DNA from: a virus
Taxonomy: Duplodnaviria; Heunggongvirae; Uroviricota; Caudoviricetes
IMG/VR virus record: IMGVR_UViG_2563366870_000004
Coordinates: 1-42,584 of that record
Length of the DNA stretch: 42,584 nt
Reading direction: 5' to 3' (one strand)
In this document: piece by piece, positions 8,995-37,371 of the stretch
How the letters are laid out: every line of letters begins with the position of its first letter
How positions within the stretch are numbered: position 1 is the stretch's first letter
Notes under the pieces: model-generated
What the model was told of the DNA's origin: nothing
Seen by the model: only the letters and a program-made list of their open reading frames with translations
Database searches by the model: none
Program-made: the position numbers and the translations under genes

Positions 8995-9107
8995 TTTACA
9001 TCGCACTCCTCTTGTGCCATAGTAATCGAGCACTGGCAAAATCCAGTGCCGGGATTTGCACCCCGGATTACTAAAAGGCGCATACCACGCCAGACGTGGT
9101 TTTTTTA
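8995..9107 (+). ncRNA. Candidate small structured RNA / leader element upstream of the anti-repressor gene
   Basis: Three successive hairpins (CACTGG..CCAGTG, CCGGG..CCCGG, CCACG..CGTGG) ending in a T-run; overlaps a low-plausibility ORF 8905-9243. Confidence 0.3.
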
Positions 9108-9255
9108 TGCGTATAGCACAGTCATGCCAGAATTATGGTGGGACGTGCAGGGGCACCGAAAGGTGCGCCGGGTCCTTTTAGCCGGTAGTGCAAACCCTGT
9201 ACGTCTCACCACCAACGAGATTTGCACCTCAGGTGGTGATTAACCATACTAAAAG

Positions 9256-23243: not shown

Positions 23244-23681
23244 TTAACCAGTTACTTTTGAGCGGATCGGATACGGCGTATTGGCATCAACATCAAGACT
23301 GATACCAGCAGTGAATTCGCCAGCCGTTAGTGGGCCAGTTGCGACGGAGTAGTTAACACGCAGATATCGCTGAACACCGGCAGGCACCTTTGCAGAAACA
23401 ACTCGTTTACCTGCTGTCAGGGTGGTCTTTGCCAGTGCACCACTATCATAAATAGTGGTCCATGAGCTGTTATCCTCACTCGTCTGCAACTGGATGTTTA
23501 CAGTTGCATCACCGCTTGCTGCGGCAGCTGTGTTAACCAGCGCCCAAAACTCAAGCGGGTAACCCACGCCGATATCACGACGTTTTCCGTCAATTGGACC
23601 GAGATCGATTACGTCAGTAGAAGCCGCGGTATCAGTTACCGCCTGTGCTTCGGAGAACATCAACAGTTTGTCGGTGATCAT
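23244..23681 (-). CDS. Hypothetical capsid-associated protein (possible decoration protein)
   Basis: 145 aa immediately after the major capsid gene. Confidence 0.4.
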   Translation of the reverse strand: MITDKLLMFSEAQAVTDTAASTDVIDLGPIDGKRRDIGVGYPLEFWALVNTAAAASGDATVNIQLQTSEDNSSWTTIYDSGALAKTTLTAGKRVVSAKVPAGVQRYLRVNYSVATGPLTAGEFTAGISLDVDANTPYPIRSKVTG

Positions 23682-23732
23682 CTTCTTTCTCCATTAGTGG
23701 GTCTGTTACGACCCACAGGTTAATAACAGGCG

Positions 23733-24725
23733 TTACACCACGCGGGCTTCTGTTTCCAGAAGCGCATCAGTTTCACGGATTGGTACACCACGGAATGAAG
23801 TCCACCACTCGCCTTCAGTCTCTTTTACGCTGATAGCCAGAGATGTTTTCTCCAGAGACTGCAGATCAAGAGCCTGGCCTACAGTGCGGTTCATGTAGAA
23901 CACCGGGCGGCCCATGCCACGGTTTGGAATGCGATGCAGTGCTTTAACCATCAACTTCGCAATATTTGCGGCAGAGGAAGGTTCTGAAAGATTGCTGACA
24001 TCGATGTTTGCAATGCGAACAACATAACGCCAGTCACGCAGAGCAAGTCCGTTATCCCATTTGTAATGGGTGCGATAGCCTTCGTACTTGCCGCCATTAG
24101 CATCTTCCAGTGTCACCTGGCCTTTATCTTCCATCTGGATGCCAGCCTTCTGCCCTTTCGGGAAGATGCCATGCACGGTGTTTTCGCCCCACACCACTAA
24201 CCAGATTGAGGTGTTATCTGTACCCGTGCCACCAGCATCAATGATGTTCTGAGCATTACCCGCAGACAGGCTGGAATAGCGGGAGGACAGTCCCATAAAC
24301 TGCTGAGGGTTAACGCTGGAATCACCATAAAACAGCGTCTGCGCCATCTGCTGATTCATCGCTTCAATAAATGCGCGGTCTTCAGACAGGCGGAATTCGG
24401 CGGTATTACCGTTCAGATCAGCCAGTGACTTATCGACTTCAGCATAGGTTTCCAGCATGCCAACGGAGTCGGTGACCTGCACTGTGGTTGATTTGCTTGG
24501 CTGTACGCCATAGTTCAGCAAACGCCAGGTAGCTGAAGGTAAACCAGAACGAATGGTGGTTCGGTGTCCGGTAGGAAGGTTCCCTTCGACAAAAGGCATA
24601 TCCTGAAGGATCGGGTTAGTTTGACCGAGAAGCTCGATAATCTTATCGACTTTCCCGTTTGGATCGACGCGCTTACCCCAGTCAGCCAGCGTTAGCGCAG
24701 TTAAGCCTTTAACAGCCATTGTCAT
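23733..24725 (-). CDS. Major capsid protein
   Basis: 330 aa, follows the acidic scaffold gene, downstream of portal. Confidence 0.7.
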   Translation of the reverse strand: MTMAVKGLTALTLADWGKRVDPNGKVDKIIELLGQTNPILQDMPFVEGNLPTGHRTTIRSGLPSATWRLLNYGVQPSKSTTVQVTDSVGMLETYAEVDKSLADLNGNTAEFRLSEDRAFIEAMNQQMAQTLFYGDSSVNPQQFMGLSSRYSSLSAGNAQNIIDAGGTGTDNTSIWLVVWGENTVHGIFPKGQKAGIQMEDKGQVTLEDANGGKYEGYRTHYKWDNGLALRDWRYVVRIANIDVSNLSEPSSAANIAKLMVKALHRIPNRGMGRPVFYMNRTVGQALDLQSLEKTSLAISVKETEGEWWTSFRGVPIRETDALLETEARVV

Positions 24726-24733
24726 TTCCTCTC

Positions 24734-25447
24734 TTATTTGCCATAGAGCACTTCGGCCGCACTACGCTGGCCTTCATTACCACCGGTGACCATGCCATCT
24801 TCAGACATCGCCTTTCCGATTTTCACGAACGTTTTGACCAGATCAGGGTGATTACCCAGCCCGGTGGTGTTCAGATATTCTTTGAGTTCAGGTGTCCCGA
24901 ACTGGTCAAGCGCACGCTGTGCGGCGCTAAGGTTAGAAATCAACTTGTCGCCACCGATTTCTTTGTCAGCTTTTACATCCGCAGCCCACTGCTCGGTTGT
25001 TTTCTGCCAGGCTTCTGCCTGGCGCTGCTGAACACCTGCCAGAATCTTCGGATAAGCATCAACCAGCTTTTGCGCTTGCTCGTTGGTCAGGTTAAGTTCT
25101 CGCGCCACCGGCTCGAATTCCTTCAACGCTTCTGTATCCAGCTCTACGCCTTCGGCAGCCTGAAACTCGTACTTCTCAGGCGCACCCTCTGGCTTCTTAT
25201 CCTTTTCTGCTTCTTCGGTATTGGCTTTTTCAGCAGCAAGCTCTCCCTCAGTTTTCTGAGCTTCAGAACCTTTCTCAGAGTCAGTCCCCTGGGAGTTATC
25301 CTGCGACTGGGTTTGCTCCTGCATTTCACCCGAGCCCTGAGTGGTTTCAGTTGCTCCCGTTGAAGCTGTATCTGCCTGGCCACCTTCAGTGGATTGCTCA
25401 TTGCAAAGACGGCGATACAGCAAACGCTCAAATAAATTCATGATCAC
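24734..25447 (-). CDS. Scaffolding protein
   Basis: 237 aa acidic, helical low-complexity protein between portal and capsid genes. Confidence 0.55.
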   Translation of the reverse strand: MIMNLFERLLYRRLCNEQSTEGGQADTASTGATETTQGSGEMQEQTQSQDNSQGTDSEKGSEAQKTEGELAAEKANTEEAEKDKKPEGAPEKYEFQAAEGVELDTEALKEFEPVARELNLTNEQAQKLVDAYPKILAGVQQRQAEAWQKTTEQWAADVKADKEIGGDKLISNLSAAQRALDQFGTPELKEYLNTTGLGNHPDLVKTFVKIGKAMSEDGMVTGGNEGQRSAAEVLYGK

Positions 25448-25740
25448 TCCTGTTCACTGGCCTCTTTGGCCATCTTCAAATACTGTTCAGGGCAATGCGC
25501 CATAACGCGCTGAAACAGCTCCAGCGCCAGATTGCGTTGCCCCTCATAAAATGCCATTGCCATAGCGTCCATCGGAGAGATAGCGGAAAACACCCGGCCT
25601 TTCTCCAGCACAGACCAGACAACGCGACGCCCCTGTTCACTGCTCATGACAAAGCGAATGTCATCAATTTCACGCTGCGCCATGTCACGTTGCTTACGGG
25701 CGTTTTCTTCTTTCAGTTGATCGTCTTCGTAATCTGTCAT
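25444..25740 (-). CDS. Hypothetical head morphogenesis protein
   Basis: 98 aa, overlaps portal stop and scaffold start by 4 nt each. Confidence 0.45.
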   Translation of the reverse strand: MTDYEDDQLKEENARKQRDMAQREIDDIRFVMSSEQGRRVVWSVLEKGRVFSAISPMDAMAMAFYEGQRNLALELFQRVMAHCPEQYLKMAKEASEQE

Positions 25741-27416
25741 TGTGATTGCCCACCCTGACCACTAACTGCATTCGCCATAGCTGACAAAACACTCGGATCC
25801 GAAGTTTTAGCTTCGCTTAGCGTCTTGGCACCCTGTGCCGCCGCCATCCCCATCTCCATCATTTGTTGCTGCTGTTGTTGCTGTGCCCGTTGCTGGCGAG
25901 CCTGCTCAACCTGTTCCTGCGGAACAATGACGGTTGGAGACACTCCGGACATATCAGCGAATGCATCGATCGCCTGATCAACGTTGAGTTTGTCGAGAGC
26001 TTCTGGTTTCGCTTGCGCAAGTTGACCAATGAAGTTGACCGTAGACGCCAGACTGGACAGGCCGATAGACTTCTGCGCCTGAGCCATGACGGAAATGTAT
26101 TCGACCTTCAGGGGCATACCTTCCATCGCGTCAGGCGGTGGCGGCAGCATGTTTTTACGCACCATCATCGAGAAAGCGCGGTCAATGAGAGGATTAAGAC
26201 ATTCGTCGTTCAGACGCTCCAGAACCGGCCCCAACATCAGAAGTTTTTCTTCTTTCATTTCGATCACCGCTTCAACAGGCATCGAGCGGGTATTGATGTT
26301 CTGCAACATCATGAACAGATCGACAAAGTAGGCGCTGTTAATGATTTGACGAGTGTCCTGAATGTCTGCCACCAAATCTGCTGTACTGGGGTTAACCAGA
26401 TAAGCAGGCCTGAAACCATCATGACCAGTAATCTGATCGATATACGTGATGTCGCCAGGAAGAAGGGAGGCGCGCTGATTCTTGAGGGAAGTCGGAGCAA
26501 CCATCGGCGGATTGGTGGCTTTATCAATCAACTGCGACTTGCGCTTCTGGAGAAGCTGCAATGCCTTAACAGGTCCAAGCGCCAGCATACCCGGGCATGA
26601 TGATCCATAAACATCTTCGCCGTTAACTTCCCAGCGCGGAGCCATAATTGGAAACTCATCGAATCCGGACTCACGCAACAACTTGTCGTTATCGCCACCA
26701 ACCTCGTAATAAACCGATTTGAATGGCTTGTTCTTGCTATCCAGCTTCGATGTATCGCGGTCAATGTTCGGGTAAACCGAATGCATCACTTCAATCCACT
26801 TCTCGTAGGTGCCGCTTTCCCACATGCTTTTTACGGATTCGCTGACGTTATTTAGCCCGAACTCCTGAACAAGCTGACGAACAGTCATAGAGAACTTGCG
26901 AAAACAGGTGTCCACACTGCCACGAGGTGAGTTAGCCAGGTAGTAACTTCCTATCGGGAATGGCATTGTGCGAATGATGTCCTCGTCATCCTCCAGCACT
27001 GCCATTGCACCAGTGCTGTATGTGCCGAGGCTTCCGTATAACTGCGGCAGCGACTGATAGAGATTCGACTTATTGAACATATCGTTCATGCGGTTCTGCA
27101 CCGCCTCAAGCCACAACTTAACAGGGCCATAATCCATCATTTCAGGATCTGGCGTAGCCAGGCGAAACCACGGACGCGCGGGGCTTGTGATGCCTGACAT
27201 CATGCCGCTGGCGAGAGTGCGCGCCGCCATAGTCCCGGTCGAATCAATAATGCGTGTATTGCGTCGATCGTTACGGTTGACCTCAGAAGTCAGAAAGCGG
27301 GAACCACGCGGGTTGATGTAATCACTCAACTCGCGCCAGTGCGGCTCGAACGACTGACGCTCGCTTTCAAGTTGTGCGAACTGTTTGTTCAATCGCTCTT
27401 TAGTTGTTTCCGCCAT
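25737..27416 (-). CDS. Portal protein
   Basis: 559 aa, downstream of terminase; size and position typical of podovirus portal. Confidence 0.8.
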   Translation of the reverse strand: MAETTKERLNKQFAQLESERQSFEPHWRELSDYINPRGSRFLTSEVNRNDRRNTRIIDSTGTMAARTLASGMMSGITSPARPWFRLATPDPEMMDYGPVKLWLEAVQNRMNDMFNKSNLYQSLPQLYGSLGTYSTGAMAVLEDDEDIIRTMPFPIGSYYLANSPRGSVDTCFRKFSMTVRQLVQEFGLNNVSESVKSMWESGTYEKWIEVMHSVYPNIDRDTSKLDSKNKPFKSVYYEVGGDNDKLLRESGFDEFPIMAPRWEVNGEDVYGSSCPGMLALGPVKALQLLQKRKSQLIDKATNPPMVAPTSLKNQRASLLPGDITYIDQITGHDGFRPAYLVNPSTADLVADIQDTRQIINSAYFVDLFMMLQNINTRSMPVEAVIEMKEEKLLMLGPVLERLNDECLNPLIDRAFSMMVRKNMLPPPPDAMEGMPLKVEYISVMAQAQKSIGLSSLASTVNFIGQLAQAKPEALDKLNVDQAIDAFADMSGVSPTVIVPQEQVEQARQQRAQQQQQQQMMEMGMAAAQGAKTLSEAKTSDPSVLSAMANAVSGQGGQSQ

Positions 27417-27430
27417 TTCAATGACTCCGG

Positions 27431-27637
27431 TTACTGACCAAGCAGCGTTTTACCGCTGGTATTAGCGGTTGATGTGTCGCCCTGAGAACCGGTAAGCAGC
27501 GTAGAACTACGACCAGCAGCAGCGCGACGGCGACGAGTTTCTTCGTCGCGGGCATCAACAACGGCGGCATCCTGCTCCTGTGGTGCTGCCTGAACTTCTG
27601 GTGTTGCAGGCACTGATGGTGAGCTACCCATGCACAT
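27431..27637 (-). CDS. Small hydrophilic protein upstream of portal
   Basis: 68 aa; ribosome-binding context GGAGTCATTGA-N2-ATG is nearly identical to that of the portal gene. Confidence 0.35.
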   Translation of the reverse strand: MCMGSSPSVPATPEVQAAPQEQDAAVVDARDEETRRRRAAAGRSSTLLTGSQGDTSTANTSGKTLLGQ

Positions 27638-27664
27638 ATCAATGACTCCGTACGCAATTAAATT

Positions 27665-27687
27665 ATTACCAATTTAACCACATATGA
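27665..27687. promoter_or_regulatory. Conserved box ATTACCAATTTAACCACATATGA
   Basis: Second copy of the AAAACCACATATG-type box; 63 bp upstream of the palindrome at 27727. Confidence 0.4.
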
Positions 27688-27726
27688 TTTATTTATCGTA
27701 GACAGTTGACATTTAACGCACGAATT

Positions 27727-27743
27727 ATTACCTTTCAGGTAAC
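27727..27743. promoter_or_regulatory. Operator-like palindrome ATTACCT-TTC-AGGTAAC (1 mismatch)
   Basis: Intergenic, between the portal-upstream region and the tRNA; TTGACA hexamer 15 bp upstream. Confidence 0.55.
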
Positions 27744-28064
27744 CAAAGAGTTCATTCCGGTTACTAACCTGACTGGCTTGTCGTTAAATTGAACAGGTGG
27801 AGTGAGCTTTTATTTTGAGCAGTACGGCGTATGGCACATGCGCCGATAGCGGTCTGGATACGTTTAAGGGGCACCCTCCCTTGCTCGGGCAAACGAACCA
27901 GGTAGCCGGAATGTGCAAGTCGAGCGGTTTTATTCCGCGCACGGGGATTCACCATCCAGGCGATTCGGTGTGACACCTCGGAAGAGACGAGGGTACAACG
28001 ATGAGAGCATTTATGGAGCCGCGACAAAGTGTGGCGCCTTAACAGGCTAAGTGCTCTCAGCGTT

Positions 28065-28141
28065 GTGGCATTAGCTCAGCTGGACAGAGCAACCGCCTTC
28101 TAAGCGGTTGGTCGCAGGTTCGAATCCTGCATGCCACGCCA
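28065..28141 (+). tRNA. tRNA-Arg (anticodon UCU), phage-encoded
   Basis: Cloverleaf by hand: acceptor GTGGCAT/ATGCCAC, D-stem GCTC/GAGC, anticodon stem ACCGC/GCGGT with loop CTTCTAA, T-arm GCAGG-TTCGAAT-CCTGC, discriminator G, CCA. Confidence 0.85.
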
Positions 28142-28185
28142 GAATCACGCCTAAGGACCGTGATGCCAGAAGTTCCAGGGGGCTT

Positions 28186-28229
28186 GGCGGTGATGGTTTC
28201 CCTTGAAGGACTATCACCGCCCTTTTTAC
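28186..28229 (+). terminator. Hairpin plus T-run downstream of tRNA
   Basis: GGCGGTGAT...ATCACCGCC stem followed by CTTTTTAC. Confidence 0.45.
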
Positions 28230-28305
28230 AGCAGGACGCCATTGCGATGACTTCATGCTGTAAACCAGTACAGCCACGGAAGGCATAACTCATTGCTTCC
28301 AGTTC

Positions 28306-28329
28306 GCCCGGTTCGCCGGGCATTTTTTT
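28306..28329 (+). terminator. Hairpin plus T-run immediately before the accessory gene at 28341
   Basis: GCCCGG-TTCG-CCGGGC then ATTTTTTTA; could act as terminator or attenuator. Confidence 0.5.
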
Positions 28330-28340
28330 AAGGTGAGATT

Positions 28341-28763
28341 ATGAAGACAATTGATATGTTGGCTAAGTATCTAAATGAATGGCCATTAAAATATTCTCGT
28401 ATCGTTCAGGCTGAAGACTGCATTTTTTATGGCGTTTTTGCTGGTAATGAAATGCATTACGAAGTAATTCAGAGTGAGGGGCTGACCGGGTTAACTCTTA
28501 GAGAAGACCATGGTACTAGCGTTACGTTCCATGACTGGATAACAGCACAACGTTCTGAAATGGAAAAAGGCGATGTGTTTGATATTTCTCGCTCTGTTTG
28601 CGCTAAAGCAAAAAGTGATAATGATTACATGAGCGAACACTTATACAACATGAAGCTACAGTGCCTTGCCGAGGTGCTTGGTAAAAAAGCTATTGTCGAT
28701 AAACAAGGCGCCATTAGCGAAGCAAAGGCAATAAATGCTGCATTTGATGAAATTATTTTCTAG
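28341..28763 (+). CDS. Hypothetical accessory protein, opposite strand to the flanking virion genes
   Basis: 140 aa, AT-rich, AAGGTGAG ribosome-binding site, followed by a bidirectional terminator. Confidence 0.5.
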   Translation: MKTIDMLAKYLNEWPLKYSRIVQAEDCIFYGVFAGNEMHYEVIQSEGLTGLTLREDHGTSVTFHDWITAQRSEMEKGDVFDISRSVCAKAKSDNDYMSEHLYNMKLQCLAEVLGKKAIVDKQGAISEAKAINAAFDEIIF

Positions 28764-28853
28764 CTCTGTGACATGTCACAAACAGCCAGCCGATGAGCTG
28801 GCTTTGTTTTATCCTCATCAGAGGATATCAACGACATTATCCCCACCAGCGGA

Positions 28854-30329
28854 TTAATCATAGGGATCGTAATCTGTGATGGCCTTGCCTTGCTGGTTCT
28901 GCTGCCCGGGAATTCGCAGACACTTCGACACAGGGAAAGCAAACGTCAGCAGTAGCGCATCGCCTTTACCCGGCGAGCGCCCAAGCCGCTCCTTGATATC
29001 TTCCTTCGGTTCGATAACGATTTTACCGTCCACTCGAACTTTGTACTCTGCCGCCGACAGGTCGTCCGCTGTTTCCTGGTCATCCAGCATGCCGCCCAGC
29101 CTCAGCCATGTCTTGCATGAGTTGAACATCTCCCCGCGCTTATTGAGCATCTGCGGGTCAGTAGACGCGCCACCGAACGGAACAAGTTGCCATGTACGAC
29201 CCCAGCCGTCACCGATTGACTTCAGACCAGTTCCGTAACCGAAGTCGATGAACACTGCGTCAGCCTGGTACTGGTCTTCAAAGTCAGCGATACGCTTCGC
29301 CATAATCAGATCGTCAGTAGTCTTGTTGCCAGTCCACAGCACCTTACTGTGCAGCCCCTGCCGCAGGTATATCACCGCGTCATCAACGCCTGAGTATGCC
29401 GGGTCAACGCCGATTATCACCGGAGCATGTGCAACCTGCGCAGCGGTTACCACCCGTTTCATTGCCTCATCAGTAAGACCGGTAGGGATAAACTGCAATT
29501 CAGATGCATCAGGGAATATGCCGCGCACACGGATTTTAACGAAGTCGCTGTCTTCCCCGTAGTCATCAACCCATTTCTGCAACTGCTGTTTGTTAGTGCC
29601 TTCCACCGTCCGGCTGTCAATCTGCGCACACTTCCAGCGGTGTTTGTACTTGCGGAAACATTCACGGAAACGCCCGGTGTTACGCGTCGGGTTCCCGAAC
29701 GCCACCCAGATGATTTCGGTGTCTTCGTCCGTCAGCGCACCCTCTGCTACCTCCCACACAAGATCGGCAATATTCGACGCTTCATCGAATACCACGATGA
29801 TGCGTTTGCGCTCGTTGTGTAGTCCGGCGAATGCCTCAGTGTTGTGCTCAGACCAGGGGATTGCGTCAGCTCGCCACCGCTTGTCGTGCCCAGGGTCATT
29901 GCTGTACATCGCGGTAGCGGTACAGGTAAACCAGTCTTTCGTGATAGCAAGGTTTGACCACTTGATAATTTCCGGCCAGGTCTTCGTTCGTAGCTGGTTG
30001 TCGGTGTTGGCGGTCACCACGACCTTACAATCCTCGCAAGTGGACATGCCCCAGTTGATCAGCATTGAGATAAATGCGGATTTACCAATACCGTGACCAG
30101 AAGCGCGTGCCAGCATAAGCGGCTGATAGCGCGTCTCTGGATTCTGCAGGTGATCACGTATCTCTCGGAACGCATCAGCCTGCCATTGACGTGGGCCGGT
30201 AGCATGTGCCAGTTCAGTCCCCTCTTCCCCCCACGGGAACGCATAGAGAGCATAGCCAAGCGGATCGTGAGTGAACCCTGCAATATCCTCGATCAACTGC
30301 TCTTCAGGAGATAACGCTGTATCTGTCAC
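28854..30329 (-). CDS. Terminase large subunit
   Basis: 491 aa; Walker A-like GHGIGKS; C-terminal nuclease-type acidic motifs. Confidence 0.9.
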   Translation of the reverse strand: MTDTALSPEEQLIEDIAGFTHDPLGYALYAFPWGEEGTELAHATGPRQWQADAFREIRDHLQNPETRYQPLMLARASGHGIGKSAFISMLINWGMSTCEDCKVVVTANTDNQLRTKTWPEIIKWSNLAITKDWFTCTATAMYSNDPGHDKRWRADAIPWSEHNTEAFAGLHNERKRIIVVFDEASNIADLVWEVAEGALTDEDTEIIWVAFGNPTRNTGRFRECFRKYKHRWKCAQIDSRTVEGTNKQQLQKWVDDYGEDSDFVKIRVRGIFPDASELQFIPTGLTDEAMKRVVTAAQVAHAPVIIGVDPAYSGVDDAVIYLRQGLHSKVLWTGNKTTDDLIMAKRIADFEDQYQADAVFIDFGYGTGLKSIGDGWGRTWQLVPFGGASTDPQMLNKRGEMFNSCKTWLRLGGMLDDQETADDLSAAEYKVRVDGKIVIEPKEDIKERLGRSPGKGDALLLTFAFPVSKCLRIPGQQNQQGKAITDYDPYD

Positions 30330-30922
30330 TGATTACCATCCTGACGTTCTTTGAGTCGCTTCCTGGCTGCTGCTATGCGATCAGCAATTGTCACATTCAC
30401 ATTAACATCCAGGCGTTCTTTGAATGCGTTGACGTCGACGTGCTTACCAATCAGTTCGAGGTTCTTCACCTTGTCAGGCCATTTAATTTTTTTGAGGATT
30501 GTCTCTATCGAATCCTCGTTCATGTTCATGATGGTCGATGACAGATCAAAGCCGCTAAGCGTAGTGCGCCAGATTTTCGGCCACTCGCGGATTGGCTTAA
30601 GGCTCCCATCGTCGTTGAGGATGTCGATCACGTCCATCTGGTCGATCTCCACCAGGCGCATGAGAACGTAATCAGCACTGACGCGCATTCGTTTGTTGCG
30701 CTCTTCCATCAGCTCGGCAATCCGTTTTTGAATGCGTTCATCGCGCATCATGACACTGGCTTTAACTGCCGCTGTATTTGGGGAGAATCCTGCGTTAATC
30801 GCTGCCTGAGTCTGGTTTTCAGGCGTTTTGATGTATGACTGGCAATAAGCCTCCTGCATTGCTGTTAGTGGCTTAAATTGCGTTGATTTGCGTTTATAGG
30901 TTTTAGGTTCAGCAGGCATCAT
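30326..30922 (-). CDS. Terminase small subunit
   Basis: Directly upstream of and overlapping the large subunit; start placed at internal MMPAEP with GGTGG ribosome-binding site (track ORF extends to 31000). Confidence 0.6.
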   Translation of the reverse strand: MMPAEPKTYKRKSTQFKPLTAMQEAYCQSYIKTPENQTQAAINAGFSPNTAAVKASVMMRDERIQKRIAELMEERNKRMRVSADYVLMRLVEIDQMDVIDILNDDGSLKPIREWPKIWRTTLSGFDLSSTIMNMNEDSIETILKKIKWPDKVKNLELIGKHVDVNAFKERLDVNVNVTIADRIAAARKRLKERQDGNQ

Positions 30923-30996
30923 AACCACCGTGGTAATAGTTACCGTTGTGGTAATAGTACCATGCAAAATAAAGCCGCCATAGTTGGCGGCAGTAT

Positions 30997-31209
30997 TCAA
31001 AGTCCATCAAATTCATCGTAAAAACTCTCGTCAAGATACCCTTCCCATTTACCGCGAATGAAAATTACATCCTCGCCGCAAGGGTGCTGACTGTCGATAA
31101 CTATATCCCTCCTGGCGCAACCATACTTATGCATGAGAAATTTAACCTCTTTCGGAAAATTTGCTGAGTTATCTCTCATATCTTCAAGGTCGTAGCGTAT
31201 TTTTGGCAT
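30997..31209 (-). CDS. Hypothetical protein
   Basis: Track ORF 30997-31230; start placed at internal Met (MPKIRYD). Confidence 0.35.
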   Translation of the reverse strand: MPKIRYDLEDMRDNSANFPKEVKFLMHKYGCARRDIVIDSQHPCGEDVIFIRGKWEGYLDESFYDEFDGL

Positions 31210-36212: not shown

Positions 36213-36229
36213 ATTACCTTTAAGGTGCG
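36213..36229. promoter_or_regulatory. Half-conserved operator-like site ATTACCT-TTA-AGGTGCG
   Basis: Left half perfect, right half degenerate; between 35933-36196 and the Cro-like gene. Confidence 0.3.
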
Positions 36230-36283
36230 AATAGATATGAAAAGACCGCCGGATGGCGGCCTACAGAGGGTTGTGGCTGGATA

Positions 36284-36514
36284 TCATGAGTAGAAGAAGT
36301 ATGCCAGTTCTGCTTTTGAGCGCAGCCATTGTCTTGTTTTACAGGCTTTAAAAAGCCCATTCATCAATACCTTACCTGGCATTTTGCGCTTACCTGTTAA
36401 GTGAGTCTGGATATAGTGACTCGTCGTTCCGGCTTCCTGTGCGAAGGCTTCACGCTCATCCGGAGTAAGTGCAAGCCAGTGCTTTTTGAAATCGAAATGT
36501 CCGTTATCGCTCAT
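36284..36514 (-). CDS. Cro-like HTH DNA-binding protein (first gene of the leftward operon)
   Basis: 76 aa; HTH-like AFAQEAGTTSHYIQTHL; divergent from the repressor gene. Confidence 0.5.
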   Translation of the reverse strand: MSDNGHFDFKKHWLALTPDEREAFAQEAGTTSHYIQTHLTGKRKMPGKVLMNGLFKACKTRQWLRSKAELAYFFYS

Positions 36515-36597
36515 AGCTATTGCCTGATATTTATTTCAGATAATAAATATTCACCCATAAGGTAACAAAAATCAAGGATAGTTACCTATGGGGTGCA

Positions 36598-36614
36598 TTT
36601 ACCTGTTGGGTAAT
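36598..36614. promoter_or_regulatory. Operator-like site TTTACCT-GTT-GGGTAAT in the cro/repressor intergenic region
   Basis: 2 mismatches to consensus; additional half-sites AGGTAAC (36560-36566) and GTTACCT (36581-36587) nearby. Confidence 0.5.
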
Positions 36615-36668
36615 ATTGCTTTAAATTGAATCATCTACTGATTCATATATGAGGCGATTTTCCAGAAA

Positions 36669-37253
36669 ATGAAAAGTATCCAGGACGTCCGCAGGCAAAA
36701 TCTCAACGACTTGATCGACCGTGAATTCAATGGTGTTCAGACGCGGATGGCAGAAAAACTTGGAACTCAGGCAAATCTGGTAAACCGCTGGGCTCTTGGC
36801 AAGAAGGTTATCGGCGACCAGGTTGCGCGAAAAATTGAAGCTGCCGCCAATAAACCCCGTAACTGGCTTGATATCGATCGCTCGCTTTCTCAAGAAGGTT
36901 TTCAGCCTGTCGGACCAAGCGACATTGGTCAGCTGGCGGCTCACAACCTGGAACGTTGGATGAGCGAAAGCCGAGACCTTTCAACGCAGGGAAAACTTCA
37001 CCGCGCATCCGGTGTCGCCCAAGTGACAATCAGCCGCCTGTTAAACAATGAGGTCAGCGTTTCCATTTCCACCCTGGAGAATGTTGCATCCGCATTCGGG
37101 CGTCACGGCTATGAATTACTGATTCACCCGCACGACCCTGCGACTATCAACTATGATCGCTCGCGCTACGCATTGTTACCTGAAACAGAGAAGGCAAAGA
37201 TCGAAAGTTACATTGAATTTGTCATCAACCAGAACGAAAAAAGCAAACAATAA
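36669..37253 (+). CDS. Prophage repressor candidate, dual HTH (XRE-type) domains, no S24 peptidase domain evident
   Basis: 194 aa; HTH-like segments QTRMAEKLGTQANLVNRW and LHRASGVAQVTISRLLNNE; flanked on both sides by the palindromic sites. Confidence 0.6.
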   Translation: MKSIQDVRRQNLNDLIDREFNGVQTRMAEKLGTQANLVNRWALGKKVIGDQVARKIEAAANKPRNWLDIDRSLSQEGFQPVGPSDIGQLAAHNLERWMSESRDLSTQGKLHRASGVAQVTISRLLNNEVSVSISTLENVASAFGRHGYELLIHPHDPATINYDRSRYALLPETEKAKIESYIEFVINQNEKSKQ

Positions 37254-37273
37254 AACTATAGTTTTCAGAAAGT

Positions 37274-37299
37274 AAGCCGCCTCATGGCGGCTTTTTTAT
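37274..37299 (+). terminator. Rho-independent terminator after the repressor gene
   Basis: AAGCCGCC-TCAT-GGCGGCTT followed by TTTTTTATT. Confidence 0.6.
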
Positions 37300-37309
37300 T
37301 GCCCATGAA

Positions 37310-37326
37310 ATTACCTTACGGGTAAT
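37310..37326. promoter_or_regulatory. Operator-like palindrome ATTACCT-TAC-GGGTAAT (1 mismatch)
   Basis: Upstream of the rightward early operon. Confidence 0.55.
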
Positions 37327-37371
37327 TTTTTTAACTCATATCTATTGACAACAAACCAAATACGCATAATT

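Follow-up and report, generated by a model that had tools for sequence, protein, structure and literature searches.

The genome in virus record IMGVR_UViG_2563366870_000004 (Uroviricota, Caudoviricetes; 42,584 nt, analysed over its whole length and called the window below) carries a tRNA gene with a stretch of non-coding DNA in front of it, both on the strand opposite to the late genes, and the question raised by this locus is what that DNA encodes. A model reading the sequence alone (the original prediction) had placed there a tRNA-Arg for the AGA codon, between terminase and portal, preceded by a TTGACA hexamer and an operator-like palindrome and followed by two hairpin/T-run elements. It had also proposed that the approximately 320 bp between palindrome and tRNA were non-coding, GC-rich and structured, and might contain another RNA gene or a leader that is processed. 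We found that 245 nt of these 320 bp are a conserved, covariation-supported RNA with six helices and two pseudoknots (Table 1), the approximately 80 nt at the start (27743-27823) lying outside it. The notable part of the locus is this upstream RNA, referred to here as the element, and not the tRNA, of which it is independent.

The fold was derived from an alignment of diverse copies in which invariant blocks alternate with inserts of variable length. RNAalifold predicted 46 pairs from 19 non-redundant copies, 16 of them with compensatory double changes, and the two pseudoknots were then added by hand from the sequence. Pair statistics were computed on a MAFFT alignment of the 19 copies, no structure having been used in the fitting. 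Of 1002 pair cells, 98.3% held standard pairs, a share that fell to 30-42% on sliding the partners by 1-3 columns, and changes on both sides were seen in 17 of 53 pairs; none of 500 column shuffles reached the observed value of any of five measures. Pseudoknot PK2 covaries (C-G to A-U in three sequences), whereas PK1 is invariant and thus gave no covariation test. Alternation of G-C and G-U at many positions indicates that the RNA is read from the + strand, the same strand as the tRNA. Helix P6 is the long closing stem, and its apical insert differs in length between copies (about 20 nt at the shortest, 250 nt or more at the longest).

A covariance model (R1) built on the alignment of copies matched the window copy over its full length (210.5 bits, E = 4e-60) and recovered approximately 150 copies in the homologous loci retrieved; a scan of the window with this model revealed no second copy. 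The structure was counted as real because of the comparative covariation evidence, which was decisive, and not because of single-sequence folding, which was suggestive only (z = -2.4 for 27744-28064 and -3.2 for 27824-28068). The predicted richness in G+C was also borne out (54-56%, against 41-47% in adjoining intergenic DNA). We regard the existence of this conserved structured RNA family as nearly certain.

Several copies depart from the common form. One IMG/VR contig (L029) carries two copies about 580 nt apart on the - strand (3940-4153 and 4736-4958; 113 and 150 bits), the only tandem pair. A variant subclass (L016, L017, L040, L049, L120 and L140) shares the 5' two-thirds, from helix P1 to PK2, and has a different 3' domain, in which P5 is altered and a short hairpin, CACAAC...GUUGUG, forms the closing stem. 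Hairpins resembling a T-arm (GGTTCGATTCC and the like) occur in the P6 apical insert of L106 (3520-3783), L102, L009 (1503-1792), L008 and L015; ARAGORN called no tRNA in these inserts, even in that of L106, which is nearly tRNA-sized.

The element did not correspond to any family in Rfam 15. At the gathering threshold the whole window gave only the tRNA, C4 and isrK, the element being unmatched; at E <= 10 the 801 nt around the element gave no match over it, and at E <= 1 five homologous loci gave chance-level hits at most. In one locus (L012, deposited as a Stenotrophomonas phage), a sub-threshold RprA-like match (1631-1750, + strand; 50 bits against a gathering score of 70, E = 6.5e-4) starts within the 3' end of the element (1443-1671) and runs about 80 nt beyond it. 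No description of the element was found in the full-text literature, most subscription journals being outside its coverage; the papers covered dealt with prophage Pas small RNAs, a survey of ten thousand viral RNA motifs, anti-small RNAs of enterohaemorrhagic E. coli, put RNA, mEp phages and lambdoid Chi phages. The RNA family is apparently undescribed. It is new at the family level, although its mechanism may prove to belong to a known class, that of RNA-mediated antitermination.

In agreement with the prediction that this DNA is non-coding, almost all records examined carry no PGAP or depositor annotation over the element, the PGAP exception being one in about 60 among the E. coli matches listed. 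A protein-coding reading on either strand (mEp460 gp37, open reading frames (ORFs) 27764-28027 on the - strand and 27815-27973 on the + strand, and phiV10p04) was rejected because of the spacing of the conserved blocks, the lack of a PGAP gene and the compensatory variation. Spacer lengths between the blocks represent every class modulo 3, ruling out a conserved reading frame. An antisense regulator like P4 CI or P1 C4 was rejected as well, no complementary site of at least 12 nt being present elsewhere in the window; four complementary 11-mers were found, which is the chance level.

A sensitive BLAST search with 27744-28064 matched about 240 nt, at about 80% identity, to unannotated DNA in unrelated temperate phages. 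These included lambdoid phages (cdtI, mEp460, Stx2c and some Stx2a phages, 2H10 and Ayreon), the P1 group (P1, P7, D6, SJ46 and RCS47) and phages of Klebsiella, Enterobacter and Salmonella. Homologues were found in 92 phage records and in 2163 of 5426 complete E. coli genomes (about 40%; 1472 with at least 80% coverage), with 554 of the E. coli sites on plasmids, and the exact 18-mer GTAGCCGGAATGTGCAAG from the element was present in more than 120 IMG/VR contigs among the matches listed. A two-block pattern applied to species-representative genomes returned 25 loci, 23 in Enterobacterales and two on contigs of metagenome-assembled genomes; the covariance model confirmed 24, including a short Bacillota contig of the latter kind (155.8 bits), and left the Stellaceae one unconfirmed.

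The neighbours of the element were extracted for 145 non-redundant contexts, comprising 72 lambdoid, 40 epsilon15-like and 12 P1-like. Every classifiable context was a phage or prophage, 21 of the 145 being unclear. In all 72 lambdoid contexts the element is in sense orientation and in leader position; the upstream gene on the same strand encodes a CI-like repressor, from three unrelated protein families by PHROG check, and usually ends 110-170 nt before the element. The order in cdtI is the cI stop codon, an intrinsic terminator, TTGACA-16-CATAAT within palindromic operators at the position of the promoter PL, 52 nt, and the element; about 120 nt and a strong intrinsic terminator then precede the early-left genes yfdP-like and yfdQ. 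In mEp460 the early-left genes run down to xis. No N-like protein was found downstream, the first ORFs being YfdP-like or of PHROG families with no assigned role and having no arginine-rich N-terminus; mEp460 has no annotated N.

In the 40 epsilon15-like contexts, as in the window, the element is opposite in strand to the portal and terminase genes on either side of it, and it is often, though not always, followed by tRNA-Arg(UCU). In the 12 P1-like contexts the element is part of the ban operon, which the C1 repressor controls, and is found between tRNA-Ile2, 14 nt away on its 5' side, and ban; phage P1 itself lacks helix P6. About half of the copies have no tRNA nearby, most lack a directly adjacent one, and an obligate tRNA partner was rejected because the lambdoid copies have none. 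Promoter-like sites were found 6-125 nt upstream in about one third of the contexts, with the -10 ending 6-7 nt before the first conserved nucleotide in four loci, and strong terminators 100-280 nt downstream in most, not all. From one context to another, entirely different genes follow the element. What the contexts have in common is that the element lies in sense orientation near the start of a transcript turned on once the prophage repressor is removed.

Some relatives have lost the element. SfV (L161, 1540-2262) shares with cdtI its cI, the PL promoter with operators and the downstream terminator, but about 680 bp including orf33 stand where cdtI has the element; all that is left of the element is its 3' boundary AGCGTTGTGGTGAATG, a sign of a recombination junction there. 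Epsilon15 (L003, 3548-3605) keeps only the first 58 nt or so, comprising helix P1 and the 5' half of helix P2; the remainder of the element was lost by deletion together with tRNA-Arg and the first terminator (T1), while the second (T2) and the ORF behind it are kept. In the K-12 cryptic prophage CPS-53, the region checked in K-12, yfdP/yfdQ are kept and the element is absent: repressor, PL and element are gone upstream of yfdP/yfdQ (L160, 9248-9604), a repeat-rich stretch of the GATTTTGACGGGTCA type standing there instead. Since the early-left region of CPS-53 is without the element, RNA discovery centred on K-12 may have missed it.

The tRNA of the window does read the rare AGA codon, as had been predicted, and is an ordinary phage tRNA of an already known kind. 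ARAGORN called exactly one tRNA in the window (77 nt, anticodon tct), and the Rfam scan matched RF00005 over its full length at 71.7 bits against a gathering score of 29. The anticodon UCU (positions 34-36) is visible as CTTCTAA in the anticodon loop, and the arginine identity elements A20 and C35 appear to be present by manual numbering. AGA is used 7.7 times per 1000 codons in the phage ORFs, compared with about 2 per 1000 in E. coli K-12, and the usual codon-supply explanation therefore fits. These codons are mostly in tail/injection and early genes (12 in ORF 3659-5767, for example), and there are none in the major head, protease, portal and terminase genes (within the ORFs of 23244-31000). 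The first 2-3 nucleotides of the tRNA double as the last pairs of helix P6. A tRNA-Arg is annotated already in O157 typing phages 9 and 10, phiv142-3, SPN9TCW and SPC32H. The phiV10 record has it unannotated, with the coding sequence PhiV10p04, which is probably spurious, antisense over the tRNA gene (L001, 3672-3923, - strand).

The region matches Escherichia phages HEMP4, phiV10 and TL-2011b at 98-99% identity, and its conserved flank is 81% identical to Salmonella phage epsilon15 (genus Uetakevirus). The predicted surroundings of the tRNA were all found in place: + strand tRNA, - strand neighbours, hexamer and palindrome upstream, two terminators downstream. The locus is a small transcription unit controlled by the prophage repressor and running counter to the late genes, with the order promoter/operator, 80-nt leader, 245-nt structured RNA, tRNA-Arg(UCU), two terminators and one accessory ORF. 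Transcription would start near 27741, as judged from the promoter sequence; a consensus promoter scan reported instead an overlapping TAGACA-18-AATTAT at 27699-27728. The palindrome is taken to be a multi-copy repressor operator because the window holds 16 matches to TTACCT-N3-AGGTAA at up to two mismatches, where 0.97 would be expected (none of 100 shuffles reached 16), and because the homologous epsilon15 site is annotated as a repressor binding site ('repressor / lysogeny'). The leader aligns among epsilon15-like phages only, and not with the lambdoid or P1 copies. The T1 hairpin had an energy of -22.8 kcal/mol in a second terminator scan. The T-run of T2 abuts the ribosome-binding site of the accessory ORF, the sole protein gene of the + strand module, and the stem-loop equivalent to T2 is annotated as a rho-independent terminator in epsilon15.

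Table 1. Features of the element and its surroundings (window coordinates)
Feature	Position	Strand	Basis
Conserved structured RNA, six helices and two pseudoknots	27824..28068	+	covariance model R1, covariation
P1	27825-30 / 27840-45	+	
PK1 (P1 loop GCACAU with AUGUGC)	27834-39 / 27911-16	+	
P2, variable insert	27850-56 / 27899-27908	+	
P3	27919-21 / 27959-61 and 27944-47 / 27955-58	+	
PK2 (P3 loop CACC with GGUG)	27950-53 / 27967-70	+	
P5, loop GAAGAGA	27976-80 / 27988-92	+	
P6, variable apical insert	27994-28012 / 28049-28067	+	
tRNA-Arg(UCU), encoded CCA	28065..28141	+	ARAGORN; Rfam RF00005
Sigma-70-type promoter: -35 TTGACA 27706-27711, 17-nt spacer, -10-like TACCTT 27729-27734	27706..27734	+	sequence; choice of -10 inferred
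Prophage-repressor operator palindrome TTACCTTTCAGGTAA, overlapping the -10 region	27728..27742	.	copy number; epsilon15 site annotation
Lineage-specific 5' leader, inferred start to conserved element	27743..27823	+	alignment
Intrinsic terminator T1: 14-bp stem + CTTTTTAC	28186..28230 (hairpin 28186-28221)	+	terminator scan
Intrinsic terminator T2: GCCCGGTTCGCCGGGC + ATTTTTTT	28306..28329 (hairpin 28306-28321)	+	terminator scans
140-amino-acid accessory ORF, PHROG 4846 (E = 6e-88)	28341..28763	+	ORF list, translation, PHROG search
Terminator-like hairpin closing the + strand module before convergent TerL	28784..28813	+	terminator scan
Portal (head-tail adaptor) homologue	25737-27416	-	ORF list and phiV10/epsilon15 annotation
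gp3-like gene	27431-27637	-	ORF list and phiV10/epsilon15 annotation
TerL	28854-30329	-	ORF list and phiV10/epsilon15 annotation
TerS	30326-31000	-	ORF list and phiV10/epsilon15 annotation

Two further observations were made on the repressor system of the window. The operator copies are dispersed over the genome (for example 5872, 8886, 10017, 27728, 34292 and 36214-37387) and not gathered in one immunity region, recalling the scattered C1 operators of P1. In addition, isrK (9030-9106, 67 bits) and C4 antisense RNA (9131-9216, 78 bits), both on the + strand and above the Rfam gathering score, make up a c4/ant-style RNA immunity module of the P1/P7 immI type in an epsilon15-like phage; operator copies at 8886, 8979 and 10017 flank it.

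As to the function of the element, we tentatively favour a cis-acting nascent RNA that would let early transcription pass the terminators downstream of it. This mechanism is preferred because the position of the element is that of nutL in lambda and of putL in HK022 and HK639. The nascent RNA would act on the RNA polymerase transcribing it, or on the access of Rho or terminators to the untranslated leader, and early transcription would then pass the intrinsic terminators that follow, T1 and T2 in the window and the terminator before yfdP/yfdQ in lambdoid phages of the cdtI type. The element would thus do the same job as N/nut of lambda or put RNA of HK022 by means of an unrelated and much larger fold. 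In the window, a promoter scan detected no promoter-like site on the + strand between T1/T2 and the accessory ORF; read-through of T1 and T2 is therefore the only visible route to its expression. RNase P cutting at the 5' end of the tRNA would also release the element as a discrete RNA there.

Several observations weigh against this cis-acting mechanism. The element is present in one copy per phage, with none in the PR-side operon, whereas HK022 has both putL and putR. It is dispensable, as epsilon15 has kept only about 58 nt of it and yet retains T2 and the ORF. In SfV, which has cdtI-like cI, PL, terminator and early-left genes, the site of the element is taken by unrelated DNA and an N is not visible; relatives lacking the element were looked at for N in its stead, and as SfV has neither, functional equivalence to N is unsupported. 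In P1 the element lies 2.3 kb from the operon promoter and is without P6, and in some contexts there is no terminator within 700 nt. A 245-nt double-pseudoknot fold with invariant loops also seems oversized next to the 70-nt put, and the complexity of the fold, the tRNA adjacency and the portable-module habit fit a processed trans-acting RNA about equally well.

Such a trans-acting RNA is a possibility that we hold with similar reserve. The element would be a discrete, stable, moron-like accessory RNA. RNase P would cut it from the early transcript at its junction with the tRNA in the window, and other nucleases would do so in other contexts; soon after induction it would then associate with some protein or complex of host or phage, serving for instance host takeover, counter-defence or exclusion. 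The invariant single-stranded and loop nucleotides, together with P6 inserts of 20-250 nt, are typical of a tertiary structure or a binding partner, and the element behaves as a portable module with sharp boundaries among unrelated phages, missing or replaced in epsilon15 and SfV and followed by wholly different genes from context to context. The tRNA adjacency (tRNA-Arg on the 3' side in epsilon15-like phages, tRNA-Ile2 on the 5' side in P1-like phages) and the T-arm-like hairpins in some P6 inserts point the same way. The epsilon15-like phages provide an operator-promoter of their own, then the tRNA and T1, making up an apparently self-contained RNA gene unit; the lambdoid and P1 copies, on the other hand, have neither promoter nor terminator of their own and are embedded in mRNA leaders, and the invariance of orientation and leader position in 72 of 72 lambdoid contexts is not what this model leads one to expect. 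There is also no Rfam similarity to GOLLD, ROOL, 6S, Y RNA or the like, and no antisense target of at least 12 nt in the phage of the window.

It is unlikely that the element is a ligand- or factor-sensing leader, riboswitch-like or a loading site for Nus factors, tuning the early operon to the state of the host and feeding the lysis-lysogeny decision. The site in a 5' leader, the pseudoknotted core, the invariant junction nucleotides, the variable peripheral stems and the terminators that follow would suit it. In most copies the 3' strand of P6 reads AGUGCUCU(C/U).. and then GUUGUGG, a tail that may resemble boxA/boxC of rrn and lambda nut, and the P5 loop GAAGAGA may be likened to the boxB loop of lambda nutL. 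The boxA-like stretch, however, is base-paired with covariation and is lost in some members (L010 has GAGCUAC). The mEp460 phage, which has the element and no recognisable N, owes its name to a collection of phages described as dependent on Nus (PMC11893012). Against a sensing leader, the terminators are 100-280 nt away, with a whole tRNA between in the window, so that there is no expression platform overlapping an aptamer, and no metabolic theme connects the genes that follow.

A processing or stability element, that is, a folded domain shielding the early transcript or guiding maturation of the neighbouring tRNA with no regulation involved, is quite unlikely. The element abuts tRNA-Arg, with P6 overlapping tRNA nucleotides 1-2, it follows tRNA-Ile2 closely in P1, and an RNase III site was proposed by the epsilon15 annotators in the homologous region; but the many copies with no tRNA nearby fit it poorly, bacterial tRNAs need no such helper, and the conservation of loops and pseudoknots is far above the need of a protective hairpin. 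Finally, the very improbable reading that there is nothing special here, only ordinary intergenic DNA or a small protein gene beside an ordinary tRNA, could draw on hypothetical ORFs annotated by depositors over or near the element (mEp460 gp37, with phiV10p04 nearby) and on the modest single-sequence z-score, but is already refuted by the covariation and frame tests, and neither the invariant blocks shared at about 80% identity across unrelated phage lineages nor the near absence of PGAP genes among the E. coli records listed agrees with it.

The tRNA alone changes nothing. The upstream RNA, on the other hand, is a complex and common one that was apparently overlooked in well-studied material, namely the P1 ban operon, Stx-converting phages and common E. 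coli prophages, and it lies in an early, repressor-controlled transcript and so would be among the first products when a prophage wakes. Carried by P1 and by prophages of about 40% of E. coli, it may possibly represent a new class of phage RNA, either a nascent RNA that reprograms polymerase or an ornate early RNA with a new target. If it modifies RNA polymerase, it would explain early-left expression in many lambdoid phages lacking N and would provide a second natural model, besides put, for elongation control by RNA only. If it acts in trans, GOLLD and ROOL, phage RNAs still unexplained, would have an enterobacterial counterpart in a host amenable to genetics. Both readings are open to direct testing by standard E. 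coli and phage genetics.

Among known systems, phage tRNAs for rare codons (the argU-like tRNA-Arg(UCU) of Stx, P22-like and epsilon15-like phages) are exactly what the tRNA of the window is, its sole oddity being the fusion to the 3' end of a structured RNA. The C4 and P4 CI antisense RNAs resemble the element in lying in the leader of a repressor-related operon and in possibly having an end generated by RNase P; the element differs in showing no Rfam match to C4 in sequence or structure and no complementary targets of at least 12 nt in the phage. With lambda nut/N it shares the position after PL; its short hairpin with an invariant purine-rich loop (P5) and its GCUCU-containing stretch (P6) may resemble boxB and boxA. 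Unlike lambda nut, however, it is about 8 times larger, has no N-like protein downstream, and has its boxA-like stretch base-paired and not universally conserved; an N/nut system was rejected, no N-like ORF being present in the element-bearing phages.

The put RNAs of the lambdoid phages HK639 and HK022 are processive antiterminators that work in cis with no phage protein and are blocked by mutations in the zinc-binding domain of rpoC. They are at the analogous early-left position and consist of about 70 nt in two stem-loops (PMC9378689). Like the element, they occur in N-less lambdoid phages in the repressor-controlled early-left leader, shortly after PL and before terminators, and the order PL-like promoter, element, terminator was found in cdtI, in the 72 lambdoid contexts and in the window. 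Both put and the element are portable and non-coding, and by analogy the function proposed for the element would, like that of put, be confined to the sense strand. The element, with about 245 nt, six helices and two pseudoknots, is about three times larger and unrelated in sequence. It is present once per phage, whereas HK022 has putL and putR, and it extends beyond the lambdoid phages to P1 and the epsilon15 group. Homology to put was rejected, as the covariance model found nothing in the putL-like region of HK639 (best 3.5 bits), HK022 itself not having been scanned.

GOLLD and ROOL are large, ornate prophage RNAs that often lie beside tRNA genes. The element resembles them in being phage- or prophage-borne and often tRNA-adjacent, with a complex conserved fold, variable insertions and a link to the lytic programme (their properties partly from PMC12286853). 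It shows no Rfam match to them and is 2-3 times smaller, and whereas they are found in Lactobacillales, rumen and lake bacteria, it is confined to phages of Enterobacterales and embedded in early mRNA leaders. As a trans-acting RNA, the element would be an enterobacterial analogue of GOLLD and ROOL, in habit only.

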